Origin: Roseibacillus sp.
Lineage (GTDB): Bacteria; Verrucomicrobiota; Verrucomicrobiia; Verrucomicrobiales; Akkermansiaceae
Reading direction: 5' to 3'
Length of the DNA: 17,947 nucleotides
Assembly (NCBI GenBank): GCA_965242925.1
Contig: CBDEUM010000028.1
Location: 1-17,947 of the forward strand
Below the pieces are notes generated by a model that saw nothing but the letters and a program-made list of their open reading frames with translations, did no database searches and was not told where the DNA came from. This document shows positions 2,600 through 11,376 of this stretch, one piece after another. The position numbers were made by a program, and so were the translations under genes. The stretch's first letter is position 1. Each line of letters starts with the position of its first letter.

Positions 2600-4495
2600 A
2601 TGGGATCTCCTCCTCCAATCCGTTTTCGTCCCCGAACCCTCCCCGGCGCATGGCGCGCACTCCTGTGGGCCGGCGCCGTGGCAATCACCCTCCTCGCTCC
2701 TGGGTGTGGCGAAAGGGAAAAGGACACCGGGAATACACCCACGCCCGACCTCGGAACCGATCCGTCTCCTCTCTCCCTCAAATCCCCGGGGGAACCCCTC
2801 CCGGAAGTCCTGTCCTCCTTTCCACAGGCGCGGGACGACCCCTCAACCGACGGCTGGGAAACGGAAGTGCTGGCGGCAAACGCAAGCAAGCAGCTCAAGG
2901 CACTGGGCCACCTCTTTTTCAAGGAAGGAGGTGCCGACCTGGCCGCTCTCCTCGCGCCGGGCTTCACCTGCGAACCCCTCGTCCCCGCCGGAATGAGCCC
3001 AGTCTTTGAAGACGACTTGGTCCTGGTCGAACGACAAACCTCCCCCACGCCTGCGCCGACCAGTAAAAAGGCCCTTGCAAGCGCCTTGGCAGAAATCCGG
3101 GAGCTTTCGCGGGGCGGCGGCCGAAACCATCAGGATGTGGAATTCAAGATCGTGGGCGTCTCCCCCGGATCCGCCGGCAACACCTTTAAGACCGAGGTGA
3201 TCTTCTCCCTCTCCTTCTCCACCGACAAGACCCTCGTCGAGCATCACGCCACATGGCTCGCGGATTGGAAGCACGAACCCGACCAGAACTCCCTCCCCGC
3301 CCTGGCCCATCTGGCCGTGCGGGACTTCGCACGCACCACGAGCAAGCGCAGCACCCCTCTCTACTCCGACGTAACCGCATCTGCACTCGGCGACACCCCC
3401 TGCTACCGCAACCAGCTTGGACTTGGCTTGAACCACTGGCTGGGCCGCCTTCCCGTGCGCGCCATGCTCAACCGCTTTGGCACACCGGGACTTGCACTCG
3501 GAGACATCAATGGCGATGGCCTGGAGGATCTCTATCTCTGCCAGGAGCCAGGGCTCCCCAATCGCCTCTTCCTGCAGAAACCCGACGGCACCGCCGAAGA
3601 AACCTCCGCCGCCTGGGGTGTCGACTGGATCGATGACTCCCGCAGTGCCCTCTTCCTCGATCTCGACAACGACGGCGACCAGGATCTCGTGGTGGCCCTC
3701 TACGGGATGGTGGTCATTGCCCGTAACGACGATCGGAAACGATTCACGGTCGCCGCCGCCCTGCCTTGTAATCCTTCCACCACCTCGCTCGCTGCCGCCG
3801 ACTACGATCGTGACGGCCTCCTCGATCTCTTCGTCTGCGGCTATGTCCAGGACGACGGCGGTGCCTCCATCGGGGCCGCGAATGACCGCTTCGTCTATCA
3901 CGACGCCAGGAACGGGGCGCCCAATTCCCTCTTCCGCAACGTCGGTGACCTGGCCTTCCATGATGTCACCGCTTCCACCGGCCTCGATCAAAACAACCTG
4001 CGCTGGAGTTTCGCGGCGGCATGGGAGGACTACGACGACGACGGTGACCAGGATCTCTACGTCGCCAACGACTACGGCCGGAACAATCTCTACCGCAATG
4101 ACAATGGGAAATTTGTCGACGTGGCAGCCAGCGCCGGGGTGGAGGATGTCGGGAGCGGCATGTCGGCGGCCTGGGGTGACTACGACCGCGACGGCCGCAT
4201 GGACATCTACGTGGCCAACATGTTTTCTGCCGCCGGTTCCCGCATCACCACCCAGGGACAGTTCAAGACCGGCACCGATCAGAACATTCGCAACCGCTTC
4301 CGTCGTTTTGCACGAGGCAACACCCTCTTCCGCAACACCGGCGAGGGCTTTGAGGACGTGAGCGTGCAGACCGGGGTCACTGTTGGGCGCTGGGCCTGGG
4401 GTTCCAACTTCGTGGATCTTAACAACGACGCCTGGCCCGACTTCGTGGTGGCCAACGGTTACCTCTCCTCCGAAAGAGACAGCGGCGACTTATGA
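2600..4495 (+). CDS. N-terminal portion (product if TGA acts as stop): lipoprotein with FG-GAP/VCBS-like repeats (CRTAC1-family-like)
   Basis: Repeats DINGDGLEDLY, DLDNDGDQDLV, DYDRDGLLDLF, DYDDDGDQDLY, DYDRDGRMDIY and DLNNDAWPDFV, with NxL(F/Y)xN linkers; lipobox-like LAPGC. Confidence 0.9.
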   Translation: MGSPPPIRFRPRTLPGAWRALLWAGAVAITLLAPGCGEREKDTGNTPTPDLGTDPSPLSLKSPGEPLPEVLSSFPQARDDPSTDGWETEVLAANASKQLKALGHLFFKEGGADLAALLAPGFTCEPLVPAGMSPVFEDDLVLVERQTSPTPAPTSKKALASALAEIRELSRGGGRNHQDVEFKIVGVSPGSAGNTFKTEVIFSLSFSTDKTLVEHHATWLADWKHEPDQNSLPALAHLAVRDFARTTSKRSTPLYSDVTASALGDTPCYRNQLGLGLNHWLGRLPVRAMLNRFGTPGLALGDINGDGLEDLYLCQEPGLPNRLFLQKPDGTAEETSAAWGVDWIDDSRSALFLDLDNDGDQDLVVALYGMVVIARNDDRKRFTVAAALPCNPSTTSLAAADYDRDGLLDLFVCGYVQDDGGASIGAANDRFVYHDARNGAPNSLFRNVGDLAFHDVTASTGLDQNNLRWSFAAAWEDYDDDGDQDLYVANDYGRNNLYRNDNGKFVDVAASAGVEDVGSGMSAAWGDYDRDGRMDIYVANMFSAAGSRITTQGQFKTGTDQNIRNRFRRFARGNTLFRNTGEGFEDVSVQTGVTVGRWAWGSNFVDLNNDAWPDFVVANGYLSSERDSGDL

Positions 4496-6451
4496 AGTTT
4501 CTTCTGGCGACAGGTCGTGTCGCGCACTCTCGATTCCAGCGAAATGCCATCCGATCCGGCAGCCACCGGTGCCCACGTCGCCCTTTCCGCCATGATCGAT
4601 TCCGGGCGCTCCTTCAGCGGGCAGGAGCGCAATTGCGTCTTTCTCAACACCCGTGACGGACGCTTCGCCAACCTTTCCGCCGGGAGCGGACTCGACTTCC
4701 CTGACGACGGACGTGCCCTCGCGGTGTGCGACTGGGACCAGGACGGAGACCTCGACCTCTGGATCAGCAACCGCAACGCCCCGCGTTTGCGCCTCCTGCT
4801 CAACGAGGGAAACGGGAAGAACCACTTCCTTTCATTGCGTCTCCGCGGAAACGGGACCTCCGTCAATCGGGATGCCATCGGTGCCCGGGTGGAATTGATT
4901 CCCAAGGCCAAGAGTCTGCACCACCTGGTCCGCTCCCTGCGGGGGGGCGAGGGCTTTCTGGCCCAATCCAGCAAGTGGCTCCATTTCGGCCTCGGAGAGG
5001 AAAGGGACATCGCCGGGATCAGGGTGCGCTGGCCCGATGGCACGGTGGAATCCTTCCCAGGCGTAGCGGTCGACCGGCACTATCTTCTCCTCCAGGGCAC
5101 GGGAACCCCCCAACCGGTCGCCACCGGAAAACGGATAACCGCCCTCACCCCAGGATTGCAGGAGCCTTCCCCTTCCTCGGTCAAGGCCCGCATTCCGGTC
5201 GTCACCCACCTGCGCGCTCCCAAGCTCAATGTCCGCAACAGCCAGGGGCAGGCCACGCTCGGCAACCAGAGCCTCCTCGTCAACCTCTGGGCCACCTGGT
5301 GCGCCCCCTGCCTTGAGGAACTGGGCCACCTCCGCGACCGCGCCGACGAACTGCGCACTGCCGGTCTGCAGGTTCTCGCCCTCAATGTCGACGATCTCGA
5401 CCCCGCCACCGCCGGCGATCCCTCCCGGGTCACCAGCGAACTGGGGTTCCCCTTTCCTTCCGGCAAGGCTTCCGCACCCCTCGTGGCAGCCTTCCAGGAA
5501 TTCCACGACAACCTGGTGGGACTCAACCGTCCCCTGCCCGTGCCCACCAGCTTCCTCATCAGCCCCGACGGGCATGTTTCCGTCATCTACAAAGGCCCCC
5601 TCGAGATCGACCAACTGCTTCAGGATCTCACTCATTCAACCGGCACCGTGGACGAACGTCTGCAGCGGGCCGCCCAGTTGCCCGGCTCCCAACTCTCCCA
5701 CCCCCTCGTGGCCCGCAGCCGGCTCACCCAGGAAGCCTCCACCCAGTTTCGCTACGGCCTCGCCCGCCGGGCCGTCAACGACCTCGAGGGCGCCGCCTAT
5801 TATCTTGCGGCGGCCCGCCGTCTCGATCCCGCTTACGCGCCCGCGGCCAAGGAACTGGCCAGCCTCCACCTGGCCCAGAGTCGCTGGACGAACGCACAGT
5901 CGGAATTGCAGGCCTACCTCCAACTGGAACCCCGGGACGCGGTCGCTCACCAAGAAATGGCCCTCCTCCAGGCCCGCCTTGATCAGCCTGAAAAGGCCCG
6001 GCGCCACTTCGAAAAGGCCCTCCGGCTGAACCCGGACGATAGCCTGGCTCACTTCCAGTTCGCCGCCTTCCTCGCTCCCCGGGACCCCGCCACCGCGATT
6101 TCCCGCTACCGGACCGGCCTCCACCTCCGGCCCGACAATCGCTTCGCGGCCAACAATCTGGCCTGGCTCCTGGCTACTCACCCCCGGGAGGAGATCCGAA
6201 ATCCCGCCGAGGCGCTCAAGATCGCCCTCCGGCTCGACCGGGAGAGCGGAGGCCGAGTAGCCAATCTTCTCGACACCCTCGCCGCCGCCCAGGCTGCCAC
6301 CGGGAACTTTGAGGCTGCCGCGGCCTCCGCCCGCAAGGCTCTGTCCCTGCCCCAAACAGCTCAAAACAAACAACTTGCAGAGGGCCTCAACGCTCGCCTG
6401 ACCCACTATCTGGAGGGCAAGCCCTACCTTGAGACGGAGTCCGCTCAATAA
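2600..6451 (+). CDS. Putative lipoprotein: FG-GAP/CRTAC1-type beta-propeller + ASPIC/UnbV-like + TlpA/redoxin-like CxxC domain + TPR repeats, with one in-frame TGA (candidate selenocysteine, residue 632); ~1283 aa if read through
   Basis: ORFs 2600..4495 and 4517..6451 share a frame (4517-2600=1917=3x639). The junction reads GAC TTA TGA AGT TTC TTC TGG CGA CAG GTC GTG = D-L-*-S-F-F-W-R-Q-V-V. Six DxDxDG-type FG-GAP motifs precede the TGA and a seventh (DWDQDGDLDL) follows it. AAGGAG lies at 2582-2587 upstream of the ATG. A hydrophobic stretch ends in LLAPGC (Cys36). Confidence 0.75.
4496..4528 (+). promoter_or_regulatory. Putative bacterial SECIS element directly 3' of the in-frame UGA
   Basis: Stem GCGACA (4507-4512) / TGTCGC (4518-4523) is a perfect 6-bp pairing with loop GGTCG (4513-4517). 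The stem begins after an 11-nt spacer from the UGA and the loop begins with GG after 17 nt. It contains CAGGUC, as in the E. coli fdhF SECIS apex (GCAGGUCUGC). Confidence 0.65.
4496..6451 (+). CDS. C-terminal portion: last FG-GAP repeat, ASPIC/UnbV-like domain, thioredoxin-like (WATWCAPC) domain, TPR repeats
   Basis: NRDAIGARVEL...GGEGFLAQSSKWLHFGLG...IRVRWPDG is ASPIC/UnbV-like. LLVNLWATWCAPCLEEL...PVPTSFLI is TlpA-like with a cis-Pro loop. ARRHFEKALRLNPDDSLAHFQFA and NNLAWLLAT...LDTLAAAQAATGNF are TPR-like. The annotated GTG start at 4517 has no evident RBS and overlaps the hairpin. Confidence 0.9.
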   Translation, partial: SFFWRQVVSRTLDSSEMPSDPAATGAHVALSAMIDSGRSFSGQERNCVFLNTRDGRFANLSAGSGLDFPDDGRALAVCDWDQDGDLDLWISNRNAPRLRLLLNEGNGKNHFLSLRLRGNGTSVNRDAIGARVELIPKAKSLHHLVRSLRGGEGFLAQSSKWLHFGLGEERDIAGIRVRWPDGTVESFPGVAVDRHYLLLQGTGTPQPVATGKRITALTPGLQEPSPSSVKARIPVVTHLRAPKLNVRNSQGQATLGNQSLLVNLWATWCAPCLEELGHLRDRADELRTAGLQVLALNVDDLDPATAGDPSRVTSELGFPFPSGKASAPLVAAFQEFHDNLVGLNRPLPVPTSFLISPDGHVSVIYKGPLEIDQLLQDLTHSTGTVDERLQRAAQLPGSQLSHPLVARSRLTQEASTQFRYGLARRAVNDLEGAAYYLAAARRLDPAYAPAAKELASLHLAQSRWTNAQSELQAYLQLEPRDAVAHQEMALLQARLDQPEKARRHFEKALRLNPDDSLAHFQFAAFLAPRDPATAISRYRTGLHLRPDNRFAANNLAWLLATHPREEIRNPAEALKIALRLDRESGGRVANLLDTLAAAQAATGNFEAAAASARKALSLPQTAQNKQLAEGLNARLTHYLEGKPYLETESAQ

Positions 6452-6679: not shown

Positions 6680-7477
6680 ATGAAGAAACCCATCACCTTG
6701 CTCATCCTCGCCAGCTTGGCTCTCCCGGCCACCGCGGCAACCTACTCTAACAATTTCGACGGCTATGCCGACGGCACCACGGATCTTGGTGATGGCACGG
6801 CCTTCAATGGTGCCTCCGCCTCCATTCAGGGTGGTCGCCTGCAACTCACCATCGACAACCAGGGCCTTGGCTTCGCCAGTTTCACCATCCCCGCCCTGGC
6901 CAACTCCTCGCAGGGTTGGTCGATGTCGGCTGATATCGAGATGTTCGATGCCGTTGGGGGCAACCCGCCGGCCGACGGCTTCTCCTTCAACTACGGTGAC
7001 TTCGCCGTGGGCGAGCGAGGACAGGCCGAGGACGGCATGGCCGGACGTCCGGGCGTGACGAGCAACCTCTCCTTCGAGGTCGACACCTGGATGAACTTTG
7101 ACGCCGAACAGGGTGTCAACATTTCCGGAGTCATTGGTGGGGTCGACATCCAGAATCAGCTTGGGGCTTTCAACAACGGACCCATTCTCAACGACGGCCA
7201 GACAGTGACCGGGACCATGACCGCGAGCTACGATGCCGTCGCGGGAACAGTGTCCTTTGTCACCACCGGCCTCAACACCAACGCCGACTTCGTCGACATC
7301 GACCTTGGCGGAAACAGCGGGGACGACGCCTGGAACTTTGGCTTCTCCGCCCGAGTTGGTGGCGCCAACCAGGACCTCTTCATCGACAACCTGGTCATCA
7401 CCACCGTGCCGGAGCCCAGTGGACTCGCGCTCCTCGGCTTGGGAGCCTTTGGGTTCTTCCTGCGCCGCCGCCGGTAA
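6680..7477 (+). CDS. PEP-CTERM sorting-domain protein with an L-type (legume/ConA-like) lectin-like domain, 265 aa
   Basis: ATG at 6680 gives signal peptide MKKPITLLILASLALPATAA. The C-terminus VPEPSGLALLGLGAFGFFLRRRR is a canonical PEP-CTERM (PEP, TM helix, Arg cluster). PADGFSF and SFEVDTWMN resemble the legume-lectin ADG and VEFDT..N motifs. Confidence 0.93.
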   Translation: MKKPITLLILASLALPATAATYSNNFDGYADGTTDLGDGTAFNGASASIQGGRLQLTIDNQGLGFASFTIPALANSSQGWSMSADIEMFDAVGGNPPADGFSFNYGDFAVGERGQAEDGMAGRPGVTSNLSFEVDTWMNFDAEQGVNISGVIGGVDIQNQLGAFNNGPILNDGQTVTGTMTASYDAVAGTVSFVTTGLNTNADFVDIDLGGNSGDDAWNFGFSARVGGANQDLFIDNLVITTVPEPSGLALLGLGAFGFFLRRRR

Positions 7478-8409
7478 CTGACTTTGGCTTTAAGTTTTCA
7501 TGTAACGGGGCTTCGATCTACGAAGCCCCGTTTTCTTTTGCCCCGTTATCCACTTCCTTTTGACCGAATCACAGTTATAGATCCGTTACTCTCTTCGATG
7601 ATCGCTACCCTTGCAGGAAAGCCTCTCACTGTCCCTGTAAAGAAATCCTCCCACCCCTCATGATGCCCTTCCGAATATCCCCTTCCCTGACAGGCCTCAT
7701 GGCCTCCTTCTCCCTTCTGAGCAGTGGCCTGACCCTTGCCGCGACCTACTCTAACGATTTCGACTCCTACCCCGACGGCACCACGGATCTTGGTGATGGC
7801 ACGGCCTTCAATGGTGCCTCCGCCTCCATTCAGGGTGGTCGCCTGCAACTCACCATCGACAATCAGGGCCTTGGCTTCGCCAGCTTCACCATCCCCGCCC
7901 TGGCCAACTCCTCGCAGGGTTGGTCGATGTCGGCTGATATCGAGATGTTCGACGCCGTTGGGGGCAACCCGCCGGCCGACGGCTTCTCCTTCAACTACGG
8001 TGACTTCGCCGTCGGCGAGCGAGGACAGGCCGAGGACGGCATGGCTGGTCGCCCGGGTGTGACGAGCAACATCTCCTTCGAGGTCGACACCTGGATGAAC
8101 TTTGACGCCGAACAGGGTGTCAACATTTCCGGAGTCTTGGATGGCGTCGACATCCAGAATCAGCTTGGGGCTTTCAACAACGGGCCCATTCTCAATGACG
8201 GCCAACGAGTGATCGGGACCATGACCGCGAGCTACAATGCCGCTAATGGAACGGTGTCCTTTGCCACCACCGGCCTTGAAACCAACGCCAACTTCGTTGA
8301 CATCGATCTTCAGGGGGCCGTCGGGGACGACGCCTGGAACTTCGGCTTCTCGGCCCGGGTCGGTGGTGCCAACATGGACGTCTTCATCGACAACCTGGTG
8401 ATCACAACC
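6740..8409 (+). repeat. Near-identical 666-nt direct repeat (6740-7405 and 7744-8409) shared by two adjacent genes
   Basis: Colinear with offset 1004 and no indels. By hand, 19 of 222 residues differ. Tract 6768-7041 vs 7772-8045 has 4 mismatches in 274 nt, all synonymous. Confidence 0.95.
7504..7539 (+). terminator. Rho-independent terminator after the PEP-CTERM gene
   Basis: AACGGGGCTTCG (7504-7515) / CGAAGCCCCGTT (7521-7532) is a perfect 12-bp inverted repeat with loop ATCTA, followed by TTCTTTT. Confidence 0.88.
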
Positions 8410-11376
8410 GGTGATGGAGGAGGAGGCAGCCCGGACCGCGATGGAGACGGTCTCTCTAATGTCTACGAGGAAGCCAACGGCCTTGATCCCGACGACGACG
8501 GTACCATTGGCGAATCGGCCCCCGGGGCCAAGGACGGTCCTAACGGCGCCCTTGGCGATCCCGACGGCGACAGCCTGACAAATACCCAGGAACAGGCGTT
8601 GGGAACCGATCCCCAGGATGTCGACACCGACGGTGATGATCTTACCGACGATGTCGAGGACGGCGGCGGCATCTACGTCAGCGCCAGCCAGACCGGAACC
8701 GACCCCCTCACGGCCGACACCGATGGTGATGGCCTCCCCGACGGCGTGGAGGATCCCAATCTGCCCTTCGTGAATGCCAGTCAACCCGGCACCGACCCCA
8801 ATAATCGCGACACCGATGGCGACTTCACCGGTGACGGGTCCGAGATTGACCAGGGTCGCGATCCCACTGTCCCTGACGGCGGCGGCGGCAGTGCTTACGT
8901 CCAGGACTTCACCTACCCCGACGGCACCACTGATCTTACTGATGGCTCGGTCATGACCGGCAGTTCGGCCAGCATTCAGGGCGGACGCCTGCAACTCACC
9001 ATCGACAACGTGGGTGGCGGCTTTTCCAGCTTTTCCATCCCTGCCCTGGAGGGCTCTTCCGTGGGATGGAGCGCCACTTTTGATCTCGAGATCTTCGACG
9101 CCGTTGGTGGCAACCCTCCGGCCGATGGCTTCTCCTTCAACTACGGCAATGCCCCCCTCGGCACTCTCGGCTGGGCGGAGGAAGGCATTGACCCCAACGT
9201 CGCATCGGAGAATGTCTCCTTCGAGGTCGACACCTGGATGAATGCTGACGCTGAGCAGGGTGTCAACATCTCAGGGGTTGCGGGTGGTCAGGATCTCGGG
9301 CAACTCGCCTTCACCAATGGTGTCATTCTCGACGATGGCCAACGGGTGACCGGTACGGTTGAAATCGAATGGGATCCGGTCAACGGGGCCAGCTTCACCA
9401 CCACCGGACTCAACACCAACGCCGACTTCTCCACTGTCAGCACCGCCGCCTTCCAGGCCGATGATGATTTCACCTTCATCATCTCTGCCCGCGTAGGCGG
9501 AGCCAACGAGGACCTCTTCATTGACAATCTTGTCGTGACCACCGGTGCTCCCGGAGACGCCGACGGGGATGGCCTCTCCAATGCCTACGAGGAAGTCAAC
9601 GGACTCGATCCCAACGACGACGGAACCATTGGCGAGTCCTCGCCCGGGGCCACGGACGGTCCCAACGGGGCCCTCGGCGATCCGGATGGTGATGGATTGA
9701 CCAACACCCAGGAGCGTGACCTGGGAACCGATCCCCAGGATGATGATACCGACGGAGACACTTTGACCGACAGCGAGGAACTCAGTGATGCCAACGGTTT
9801 TGTCACTAACCCCTCCCTTAGCGATAGCGACGGCGACAGCCTCAGCGACGGCGAGGAAATCAACACCCATGGGACTGACCCCCTCCTTCGCGACACCGAC
9901 GGCGATACTATAACAGACTCGGCCGAGATCAACAACGGCACCAATCCCCTCGTCTACAATCCGCCTCCCTCTGGCTACTGCCAGAACTTCGACGGCTACC
10001 CCGACGGTACCACGGATCTTGGTGACGGCTCCGTCATGGCTGGTCAGGCCGCCAGCATCCAGGATGGCAAGCTCCGCCTCACCATCGACGGCCAGGGCCT
10101 TGGCTTTTCCAGCTTCTCCATCCCGGCCCTGGGTGGATCCGCCGATGGCTGGACGGCCTCCTTTGATGTCGAGATCAGCGACGGCCCCGGCGCCAACGTG
10201 CCGGCCGACGGCTTCTCCCTCAACTACGGCGATGCCCCCCTCGGCACTCTGGGCTGGGCGGAGGAAGGCATTGGGCCCGCCGACGCATCGGAGAATCTCT
10301 CCTTCGAGGTCGACACCTGGATGAACTTCGACACCGAACAGGGCGTCAATATTTCCGGCGTGGCCGGTGGGATCGATGTCGGTCAACTCGCCTTCACCAA
10401 TGGACCTATTCTCAATGATGGCGCTACCGTTACGGGCACGGTTTCGATCACCTGGGATCCCGTCAACGGGGCGACCTTCATCACCACCGGCTTCGACACC
10501 AATGCCGAATTCCTCAACGTCGCCACCGGTGCCTTTGTCCCGGATGACTCCCACACCTTCATCATTTCCGCGCGGGTGGGTGGAGCCAACGAAACCCTCC
10601 TCATCGACAATCTCTGCATCCTCACCGGACCGCCAACCAAGACGCAGTTCGAGCTCAGAAATGTGGGCAGCGATCTGGAGTTCACCTTCGATAGCGAGGC
10701 CGGCAAAGTCTACGACATCCTCAGCTCCACCGACCCGGAAGCCGAACCGGATTCTGCCGCCTGGGCCGTGTGGCAGGCCGACATTCCCGCCACCGCACCC
10801 GTTAACGTGGAGACCTTTGCACGACCCGCGGATGCCAGGCGCTTCTTCGTGATCCGGGAGAAGGATGCCCCGCCCTTCTTCGTCGAGGACTTCGAATCGG
10901 GCCAGGGTGATTGGACCACGGGCGTGAACGATGCCAACGGGAATACTGCCTGGGTATTGGGATCTCCCGATGGAAGCACCGGGCCCATCACCGGCGCTGA
11001 TGGCTCAGGCAATGCCTTCGCCACCAACCTCGGTGACTACGGGAATGATGCCGATATCTTCCTGCGATCGCCCGTAATCGACCTCACCGGTGGTGGAATC
11101 ACGACCGCCACCCTCACCTTGGATCATTACCGTGATGCCGATGGCTTCGGAGACCTTTTCGGAGTGCGTGTTCTCAGAGCCGGTGACCTGAGCGAACTGG
11201 GAACCCTCGATCCGGATCCCATCGTTTTTGATGCGGACTGGGTGGAGTTCAGTGGAAACCTTCCCGCCTCCGCGGTGGGCGAGGAAGTCATCCTCGAGTT
11301 CTGGTTCACCAGCGATGCCACCAACGATGCCTTCAGCGGCTGGTCCATCGACAACGTGGCTGTCGGACTGCAGTAA
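7660..11376 (+). CDS. Large secreted acidic multidomain protein: 3 L-type-lectin-like domains separated by Ca-binding DxDGDG (bacterial thrombospondin type 3-like) repeats, plus C-terminal beta domains
   Basis: Signal-peptide-like N-terminus (...SFSLLSSGLTLAA). Three homologous ~220-aa domains each contain PADGFSxNYG, SFEVDTWMN and SARVGGAN. Two blocks of DTDGDGLxD...GTDP repeats lie between them. The C-terminal domain EDFESGQGDWT...GWSIDNVAV is MAM/cleaved-adhesin-like by my recognition only. Confidence 0.9.
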   Translation: MMPFRISPSLTGLMASFSLLSSGLTLAATYSNDFDSYPDGTTDLGDGTAFNGASASIQGGRLQLTIDNQGLGFASFTIPALANSSQGWSMSADIEMFDAVGGNPPADGFSFNYGDFAVGERGQAEDGMAGRPGVTSNISFEVDTWMNFDAEQGVNISGVLDGVDIQNQLGAFNNGPILNDGQRVIGTMTASYNAANGTVSFATTGLETNANFVDIDLQGAVGDDAWNFGFSARVGGANMDVFIDNLVITTGDGGGGSPDRDGDGLSNVYEEANGLDPDDDGTIGESAPGAKDGPNGALGDPDGDSLTNTQEQALGTDPQDVDTDGDDLTDDVEDGGGIYVSASQTGTDPLTADTDGDGLPDGVEDPNLPFVNASQPGTDPNNRDTDGDFTGDGSEIDQGRDPTVPDGGGGSAYVQDFTYPDGTTDLTDGSVMTGSSASIQGGRLQLTIDNVGGGFSSFSIPALEGSSVGWSATFDLEIFDAVGGNPPADGFSFNYGNAPLGTLGWAEEGIDPNVASENVSFEVDTWMNADAEQGVNISGVAGGQDLGQLAFTNGVILDDGQRVTGTVEIEWDPVNGASFTTTGLNTNADFSTVSTAAFQADDDFTFIISARVGGANEDLFIDNLVVTTGAPGDADGDGLSNAYEEVNGLDPNDDGTIGESSPGATDGPNGALGDPDGDGLTNTQERDLGTDPQDDDTDGDTLTDSEELSDANGFVTNPSLSDSDGDSLSDGEEINTHGTDPLLRDTDGDTITDSAEINNGTNPLVYNPPPSGYCQNFDGYPDGTTDLGDGSVMAGQAASIQDGKLRLTIDGQGLGFSSFSIPALGGSADGWTASFDVEISDGPGANVPADGFSLNYGDAPLGTLGWAEEGIGPADASENLSFEVDTWMNFDTEQGVNISGVAGGIDVGQLAFTNGPILNDGATVTGTVSITWDPVNGATFITTGFDTNAEFLNVATGAFVPDDSHTFIISARVGGANETLLIDNLCILTGPPTKTQFELRNVGSDLEFTFDSEAGKVYDILSSTDPEAEPDSAAWAVWQADIPATAPVNVETFARPADARRFFVIREKDAPPFFVEDFESGQGDWTTGVNDANGNTAWVLGSPDGSTGPITGADGSGNAFATNLGDYGNDADIFLRSPVIDLTGGGITTATLTLDHYRDADGFGDLFGVRVLRAGDLSELGTLDPDPIVFDADWVEFSGNLPASAVGEEVILEFWFTSDATNDAFSGWSIDNVAVGLQ
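8434..9960 (+). repeat. Two blocks (~8434-8877 and ~9556-9960) of Asp/Gly-rich Ca-binding-type repeats
   Basis: DGDGLSNVYEEANGLDPDDDGTIGESAPGAKDGPNGALGDPDGD vs DGDGLSNAYEEVNGLDPNDDGTIGESSPGATDGPNGALGDPDGD, each followed by DTDGD/GTDP units. Confidence 0.88.
8893..10626 (+). repeat. Second (8893-9543) and third (9973-10626) lectin-like domain copies within the large protein
   Basis: Shared YPDGTTDLxDG, APLGTLGWAEEGI, SFEVDTWMN, GQLAFTNG, WDPVNGA and FIISARVGGANE, with long stretches of nucleotide identity. Confidence 0.92.

Follow-up and report, generated by a model that had tools for sequence, protein, structure and literature searches.

A single in-frame TGA interrupts a CRTAC1-like gene of Roseibacillus

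We analysed a stretch of 17,947 nucleotides (nt) from Roseibacillus sp. (assembly GCA_965242925.1, contig CBDEUM010000028.1; hereafter the window), in which two open reading frames, 2600-4495 (631 aa) and 4517-6451 (644 aa, GTG start), lie in a common frame. Together they make up a frame of 1283 codons whose sole interruption is codon 632, the only TGA among them. When this TGA is read as selenocysteine (Sec, U), the protein has 1283 aa with one odd residue, U632, in the context SGDL-U-SFFWRQVVS. A first reading of the letters without database searches (the sequence-only reading) had taken the two frames for one gene split by a lone TGA, and the read-through translation bears this out. Comparison across homologs indicates that UGA632 is very probably decoded as Sec by the standard bacterial route, giving a single 1283-aa exported lipoprotein. 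The features of the gene are collected in Table 1.

Table 1. Features of the interrupted gene, in window coordinates.
Feature	Position	Strand	Basis
Read-through coding sequence, 1283 aa with U632 (gene callers: 631 + 644 aa)	2600..6451	+	Open reading frame list, translation, Pfam
Predicted lipoprotein signal ending LLAPG-C36, non-canonical Pro at -2	2600..2707	+	Judged by eye
Seven-motif FG-GAP beta-propeller with helical inserts; TGA within the sixth-repeat insert	3362..4804	+	Pfam PF13517/PF01839, AlphaFold2 (AF2), CRTAC1 match
Constrained UGA context: -1 TTG/TTA, +1 prefers AGT; possible small stem GACUU/AAGUU around the codon	4487..4499	+	Codon counts
In-frame TGA, putative Sec632, start of predicted helix (model residue 383, helix 382-393)	4493..4495	+	Translation, homolog alignments, AF2
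Bacterial selenocysteine insertion sequence (bSECIS) stem-loop GCGACA-GGUCG-UGUCGC inside the WRQVVS codons	4507..4523	+	Folding, covariation
Ser673, tracks Sec; putative neighbour of the Sec site	4616..4618	+	Alignment rows
ASPIC/UnbV domain, residues 759-828	4874..5083	+	PF07593, E 1.8e-17
TlpA/ResA-like thioredoxin-fold domain, WCAPC (C901/C904 at 5300-5311)	5258..5581	+	PF00578, E 1.4e-9
TPR repeats	5777..6364	+	Pfam and NCBIfam scans

A seven-repeat FG-GAP propeller followed by an ASPIC/UnbV domain is the arrangement of the CRTAC1 / ASPIC-UnbV family, and PF07593 and the FG-GAP Pfam models all exceed their cut-offs. As the sequence-only reading had counted, six FG-GAP motifs precede the TGA (DxDxDG at residues 302, 354, 401, 477, 527 and 606) and the seventh follows it (residue 711). 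Termination at the UGA would therefore remove the seventh repeat and leave a six-motif propeller, together with a second half that has no signal peptide. The AhpC-TSA domain of Pfam spans residues 887-994 and includes the WCAPC motif; the ResA and TlpA models stay under their cut-offs there. Judged by eye against the signal peptide II pattern, C36 is a lipobox candidate with an atypical Pro, and 9 of the 11 distinct paralogs in this genome have a lipoprotein-like start, a hydrophobic stretch followed by Cys. The product would be one large lipoprotein with predicted export and lipidation. A scan for promoters and terminators around the gene gave nothing above shuffled sequence.

The TGA recurs across Verrucomicrobiales and Planctomycetota

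All 13 aligned family sites of this genome consist of TGA followed by AGT, and they represent 11 distinct genes once a frameshifted near-duplicate and one of an identical pair are removed. Thirty of 61 related Verrucomicrobiales genomes carry the family, with 225 matches in total and up to 17 per genome; each of the 150 matches listed contains exactly one TGA. Among 201 Planctomycetota genomes, 49 have a match, with TGA in at least 73 of at least 91 matches; these counts are lower bounds because at most 35 candidates per genome were scored. We also searched metagenomes with the query SFFWRQVV, which is blind to the preceding codon. Of 542 hits, the 80 that most resemble the window were taken and 79 could be parsed: 62 have TGA and 17 a sense codon (Ala 8, Gly 5, Ser 4), while TAA and TAG do not occur.

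Overall, TGA occupies the same column in more than 100 divergent genes, and the named records carrying it include Roseibacillus, Akkermansiaceae, other Verrucomicrobiia and Planctomycetota metagenome-assembled genomes. The in-frame UGA is thus conserved among homologs with coding conservation on both sides, as in a selenoprotein gene. The sequence-only reading had proposed distant homologs and raw reads as checks on the TGA. Because the codon recurs in paralogs and across Verrucomicrobiales and Planctomycetota, it is not private to this assembly. In marine sequencing runs mapped on the stretch, depth reached 577-1360 at 4472-4533 as compared with roughly 10-55 elsewhere (two runs); the only variants near the site, at 4492, 4498 and 4510, are synonymous, and none falls within the TGA.

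Two copies in this genome and two in planctomycetes depart from the common form. The near-duplicate (G000:C37:1-3296, L043) is a 99% aa copy of the window gene in which an extra base just past the hairpin shifts the frame; it is a strain variant, contamination or an assembly error. In a paralog at G000:C30:153375 (L046) the TGA and hairpin are intact and the upstream frame has only 319 codons, reflecting a broken gene or an assembly error. The planctomycete members L121 and L132 have a Cys-Sec dipeptide, DC-U-TFYWR, and no downstream WxxxCxxC motif.

A stem-loop coupled to the TGA is conserved beyond the protein sequence

Beginning 11 nt past the TGA, GCGACA (4507-4512) can pair with TGTCGC (4518-4523) around a GGTCG loop. 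The bSECIS consensus as worded in PMC13188914 comprises a loop of 3-9 nt, a stem of 4-16 bp, a G in the first two loop positions, 16-37 nt to the loop and a minimum free energy of at most -7.5. The window hairpin agrees with it throughout (5-nt loop, 6 bp, loop beginning GG, 17 nt to the loop, and -9.5 kcal/mol for the 26-nt piece 4505-4530), though its excess over chance comes from comparison across homologs only and not from this single fold.

After de-duplication of the sites, 115 of 125 TGA genes have the complete set of five core pairs, as against 4.2 expected when synonymous codons are resampled within the same genes; of the sense-codon homologs, 0 of 21 have it (1.0 expected). With the peptide WRQVV held equal, TGA genes encode the two valines by GTC in 95/98 and GTG in 96/98 cases, whereas sense genes scatter. 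The synonymous Arg codon mostly tracks its pairing codon, CGA/CGG occurring with TCG and CGC/CGT with GCG. For 55 of 116 distinct downstream sequences, hand-picked for diversity, together with the window's own, the covariation score is 0.304 versus 0.140 in shuffled alignments (0/500), with 22 double-sided changes and a lower score in every slid register. Eighteen loci missed by the first filter were examined later; 10 are sense and 8 are TGA forms, of which four have all five pairs, three a stem in a shifted register and one four pairs. The perfect 6-bp stem, GGUCG loop and 11-nt spacer of the sequence-only reading are therefore confirmed at 4507-4523, and the covariation it had named as support is found in excess of what the amino acids demand.

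Constraint extends to the codons next to the UGA. At -1, 106/128 genes use TTG or TTA, codons that make up about 15% of all Leu codons in these genes and stand at this place in 2/21 sense homologs; the +1 codon is AGT in 82/125, versus about 32% of AGY codons elsewhere in these genes. At one locus (L228, G159:C216) the family column holds TGA, but the peptide after it, RLLVIEN, is unrelated; its hairpin forms all five pairs in the same register, lacks an early G in the loop and is possibly a separate SECIS type.

TGA forms co-occur with the selenocysteine machinery

This genome encodes a tRNA-SeC (selC) with anticodon TCA, a selB match above cut-off and a Sec-type SelD with its own in-frame TGA (CAGUASK; C14:573853-574776). 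The SelD gene carries CAGGCCG at +16, the offset of the CAGGTCG of the family, and an FdhA selenoprotein (UHAP; G000:C22:63568) has a hairpin with a GGUCU loop. The genome also encodes a DsbD membrane domain. A home-made de novo scan for selenoproteins was too crude to add to this: it returned 53 candidates that included FdhA and just 3 of the 13 family sites.

In the order, 38 genomes have selA or selB and 30 of these carry the family, as compared with 0 of 23 that have neither, although kin are not independent; outside the genus the figures are 11 of 18 versus 0 of 23. Among the planctomycetes, 40 genomes have a TGA-spanning match, and every one of them encodes selB (39) or selA (1, G088). 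Conversely, in the planctomycetes G070 and G207, where selA and selB were not found, the family form has Cys (TGC) and no stem. TGA forms were seen only in genomes with selA or selB, so that the absence of sel genes from TGA-carrying genomes, which the sequence-only reading had named as evidence against Sec, did not materialize. In G045, assembled as a single contig, no more than 10 kb separates a family gene from a fused selD, selB and selA. At this locus (L091, 5327-17788) the family gene adjoins a surface protein and these three genes.

The column in unsplit homologs and the ancestry of Sec

The homolog listing covers 120 proteins of 192 hits, restricted to 705-2246 aa. Of those listed, 31 are unsplit across the motif and have Cys (8), Asn (6), Ala (5), Arg (3), Met (3) or one each of Glu, Gly, Ser, Tyr, Gln and Asp at the column; about 50 others are C-terminal halves beginning just past the site. 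Homologs with Cys at the UGA column, as expected of a selenoprotein gene, thus exist, and the TGC codon was verified in seven loci only, L028 and six planctomycete loci. The Cys or Ser that the sequence-only reading had named for this column is too narrow a description of it. That the column is mostly non-Cys in unsplit homologs may explain why the family was missed by screens for Cys/Sec pairs.

In FastTree trees with the site masked, Sec rows occupy the deepest branches of the clade, whose sister family bears Trp, and 8 changes between Sec and sense are required in 139 rows (12 in a wider set). An ancestral Sec with repeated loss would be the simplest reading of these trees, in which basal supports are 81-93 and long branches meet. 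A deep subfamily with Cys includes the two genomes without detected machinery, G070 and G207. Members of the sister ASPIC family (L222-L227) have Trp, in the motif DYW, at the Sec column, one base off TGA.

Structure and proposed function

The AF2 model of residues 250-850, built from 63 alignment rows, has a pLDDT of 92.5 and a pTM of 0.94 and is unbroken across codon 632; residue 632 begins one of the helices of the insert in the sixth repeat, which has two. The top fold match is murine CRTAC1 (PDB 9etn_A; Foldseek E 1.5e-29; Z 42.7, rmsd 2.3 over 455 residues), which is also the only phmmer match in the PDB; matches in a PDB profile search were dominated by the TPRs. Unlike CRTAC1, the window protein has helical inserts, a predicted lipid anchor and TlpA and TPR domains, and about 130 of the 585 model residues spanned remain unaligned.

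We propose that SelB and Sec-tRNA(Sec) would be recruited by the stem-loop written into the WRQVVS codons. Sec632 would then head a helix within a conserved lid of helices on the CRTAC1-like propeller, to which D630, S633, W636 and R637, with S671, S673, E676, R677, N540 and R548, are also assigned. It may serve as a nucleophile or redox centre acting on an extracytoplasmic substrate and be re-reduced by the fused TlpA-like CxxC domain, itself fed by a DsbD/CcdA-type donor, while the TPRs may choose partners. The thioredoxin-fold domain, with its WCxxC motif and PF00578 match, is a candidate disulfide reductase of the TlpA/ResA type. If Sec is inserted, we see about an even chance that the protein is an exported enzyme, redox or nucleophilic, which depends on Sec and is recycled through its own CxxC domain.

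Alignment rows bear on this proposal in different ways. D630, S633, W636, R637, S671, E676, R677, N540 and R548 are conserved alike in Sec and sense forms. Ser673 occurs in 97/97 Sec rows versus 11/43 sense rows, and the 13 Cys forms checked all have Asn. Of 108 Sec genes with a thioredoxin domain, 105 have an intact TlpA CxxC, as do 5 of 41 sense genes without Cys at the column and 2 of 6 with it; in this count 11 further Sec genes are truncated and nine have no such domain. Met541 showed no link to Sec in the same row comparison. We also considered Cys679 as a resolving Cys (65/97 Sec versus 5/43 sense rows) and rejected it, as independent pairs gave 0.7 with and 0.5 against.

Weighing the alternatives

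The comparison establishes that the UGA is conserved, that the stem linked to it covaries, that both occur together with the Sec machinery, that relatives without this machinery have Cys, and that a single fold continues across the codon. From these we infer Sec insertion itself, by comparison rather than by measurement. Several results weigh against it or against the proposed function. Searches with TIGR00474, PF03841 and congener SelA queries did not find selA in this assembly, which is 89.9% complete, while 18 of 19 congeners have it; of the four sel genes the sequence-only reading had hoped for, selB, selC and selD are thus present and selA was not found. The window hairpin taken singly is within chance (26-nt piece z = -1.42, with 16/200 shuffles as good; three longer pieces z = -0.03 to +1.39, one with a different fold), the exact stem register is absent in 4/8 of the later TGA loci, and one of the 10 later sense loci (L119, G161:C24), with an Asp codon, retains all five pairs, perhaps after a recent loss of Sec. 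In the marine runs no record spanned codon 632 with 31 letters on each side, and in the RNA run none lay over the codon, the RNA runs containing 0.05-0.16 of the words. As regards function, a catalytic Sec with Cys in just 8/31 of the listed unsplit close homologs is unusual, the thioredoxin domain is missing from nine Sec genes, three deep TGA loci have Asn at 673, and the links of Sec to CxxC and to Ser673 are non-significant when tested on independent pairs (7 and 6 of them, none in the opposite direction; median p 0.125).

Four other explanations have to be set beside this one. A sequencing error, a nonsense mutation or reassignment of TGA to Trp or Gly might draw on the sister family with Trp at the column and on the frameshift of the near-duplicate, which shows that the assembly has flaws. 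The comparative data refute this explanation and leave it next to no probability: the TGA recurs in more than 100 divergent genes, it is single in 1283 codons, the nearby Trp636, four codons on, is TGG in 125/125 TGA genes, and a tRNA-SeC is present. If the TGA were instead a true stop, a second protein would start at the in-frame GTG at 4517 or a downstream ATG and the two halves would assemble non-covalently, which the many C-terminal halves in databases could reflect. The stop, however, is always TGA and never TAA or TAG, it is found only alongside selA or selB, and the second half has no signal peptide to match the predicted lipoprotein start of the first. The codons between the TGA and the GTG, moreover, vary at third positions and keep W636, R637 and V639 invariant as in unsplit homologs, and we consider a true stop very unlikely.

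The two remaining alternatives accept Sec. In one, the UGA is mainly a selenium-gated switch that yields the full length only with Sec-tRNA, and the identity of residue 632 matters little; the range of at least 11 different residues at the column in unsplit homologs fits this, as does a constraint on the codons flanking the UGA that exceeds the stem. We hold it to be improbable: the deep subfamily uses Cys, G070 and G207 with no detected machinery included, a product ending at the UGA would have only six propeller motifs, and the changes of Ser673 and CxxC with the loss of Sec indicate a chemical role. The stronger competitor, unlikely as we judge it yet well ahead of the switch, competes only with the function part of our explanation. 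It takes Sec632 for a ligand or metal-binding residue (soft metal, halide or thiol) in a non-catalytic CRTAC1-like propeller whose TlpA domain has a separate job, and would account for a closest fold, CRTAC1, among whose matches no catalytic relative stands out, for the tolerance of Ala, Asn, Gly, Met and Arg at the column, and for the Sec genes that have no thioredoxin domain. The decay of CxxC in most Sec-less homologs speaks against it; the direction was never reversed in independent pairs, though non-significantly so. Decoding of UGA632 as Sec is the best explanation in our view, and we hold this with high confidence; the functional proposal built on it stands at about even odds.

Relation to known selenoproteins

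Decoding by SelB, Sec-tRNA(Sec) and an in-frame SECIS is textbook. As in the window gene, the SelB-dependent UGA140 of E. coli fdhF is an in-frame codon with a stem from about 11 nt downstream, and its CAGGUC apex lies at +17 rather than +16, an offset that the sequence-only reading had noted and that holds on the fdhF sequence. The GGUCU and CAGGCCG apices of this genome's FdhA and SelD are related to that of the family. Unlike fdhF, the window stem is a perfect 6 bp without the bulged U of the upper stem and without the long lower stem, the GU of its loop forms the first two letters of an invariant Val codon, and the protein is unrelated to formate dehydrogenase. The recoding is thus fdhF-like; the strongly supported Sec codon belongs to a large, uncatalogued, multi-copy family on a CRTAC1-like scaffold.

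Neisseria PilB offers a lead for the domain arrangement, as an exported protein in which a TlpA-like domain, its own thioredoxin-like reductant, is fused to MsrA/MsrB. The window protein, by contrast, has no Msr domain, and the NCBIfam MsrAB model matches its thioredoxin part only, far below cut-off. With the thioredoxin-fold selenoproteins of PMC13188914 (Prx-like, Redoxin, UGC-containing TlpA) it has a TlpA/AhpC-TSA domain in common; in the window protein, however, the thioredoxin motif is CxxC and Sec lies about 270 residues upstream, in the propeller.

The sequence-only reading had suggested that the family may be undescribed. It is not among the 119 selenoprotein families in the full Table 1 of the 2026 catalogue PMC13188914, which includes families from Haft and Tolstoy 2025, and its motif D-L-U-S-x-x-W-R does not occur in that table; the candidate lists of Deng et al. 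2026 may bear on novelty. No model of NCBIfam 20.0 reaches its cut-off for the family. Term searches for FG-GAP, CRTAC and ASPIC gave no match in the main text of deep-Sep (PMC12013277), BSepDB (PMC13326102) or SelCysML (PMC13745706), nor in four deep-Sep supplements in which a control term was found. A full-text literature search, judged from its listings, returned no paper linking ASPIC, CRTAC1 or FG-GAP to selenoproteins or selenocysteine; ASPIC/UnbV appeared in the text of PMC3174227 only as an expanded paralog group. A search on the function of UnbV and on enediynes yielded no usable result.

If Sec is indeed inserted, an exported beta-propeller scaffold joins catalogues made up mostly of thioredoxin-fold and metal-site selenoproteins, and a recurring two-gene annotation is corrected. 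Sec would mark a probable active site, which would make the function of bacterial CRTAC1/ASPIC-UnbV proteins directly testable. With 11 distinct copies here and more in relatives, estimates of selenium demand would shift for marine Verrucomicrobia and Planctomycetota; the richest selenoproteomes given in the text on BSepDB hold 46-63 genes (PMC13326102). Tentatively, and with the balance somewhat against us, we suggest a broader picture of surface-anchored CRTAC1-like propeller enzymes with a Sec in the lid helix and their own CxxC reductant. Such enzymes would be ancient in the Planctomycetes-Verrucomicrobia-Chlamydiae group, would have expanded to at least 11 copies in a genome, and would account for most selenoproteins of marine Roseibacillus-like Verrucomicrobia. 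Retention of the Sec machinery by these bacteria would then be due in large part to a family that ranks among the largest bacterial selenoprotein families so far uncatalogued, and that would offer a first catalytic handle on ASPIC/UnbV proteins.

Neighbouring features

Downstream of the gene, the window encodes a PEP-CTERM protein (6680-7477) and a 1238-aa TSP3-repeat protein (7660-11376). A near-identical lectin-like domain is common to both and is present in three copies in the TSP3-repeat protein. Between the two genes lies a terminator-like hairpin of 12 pairs (7504-7532).

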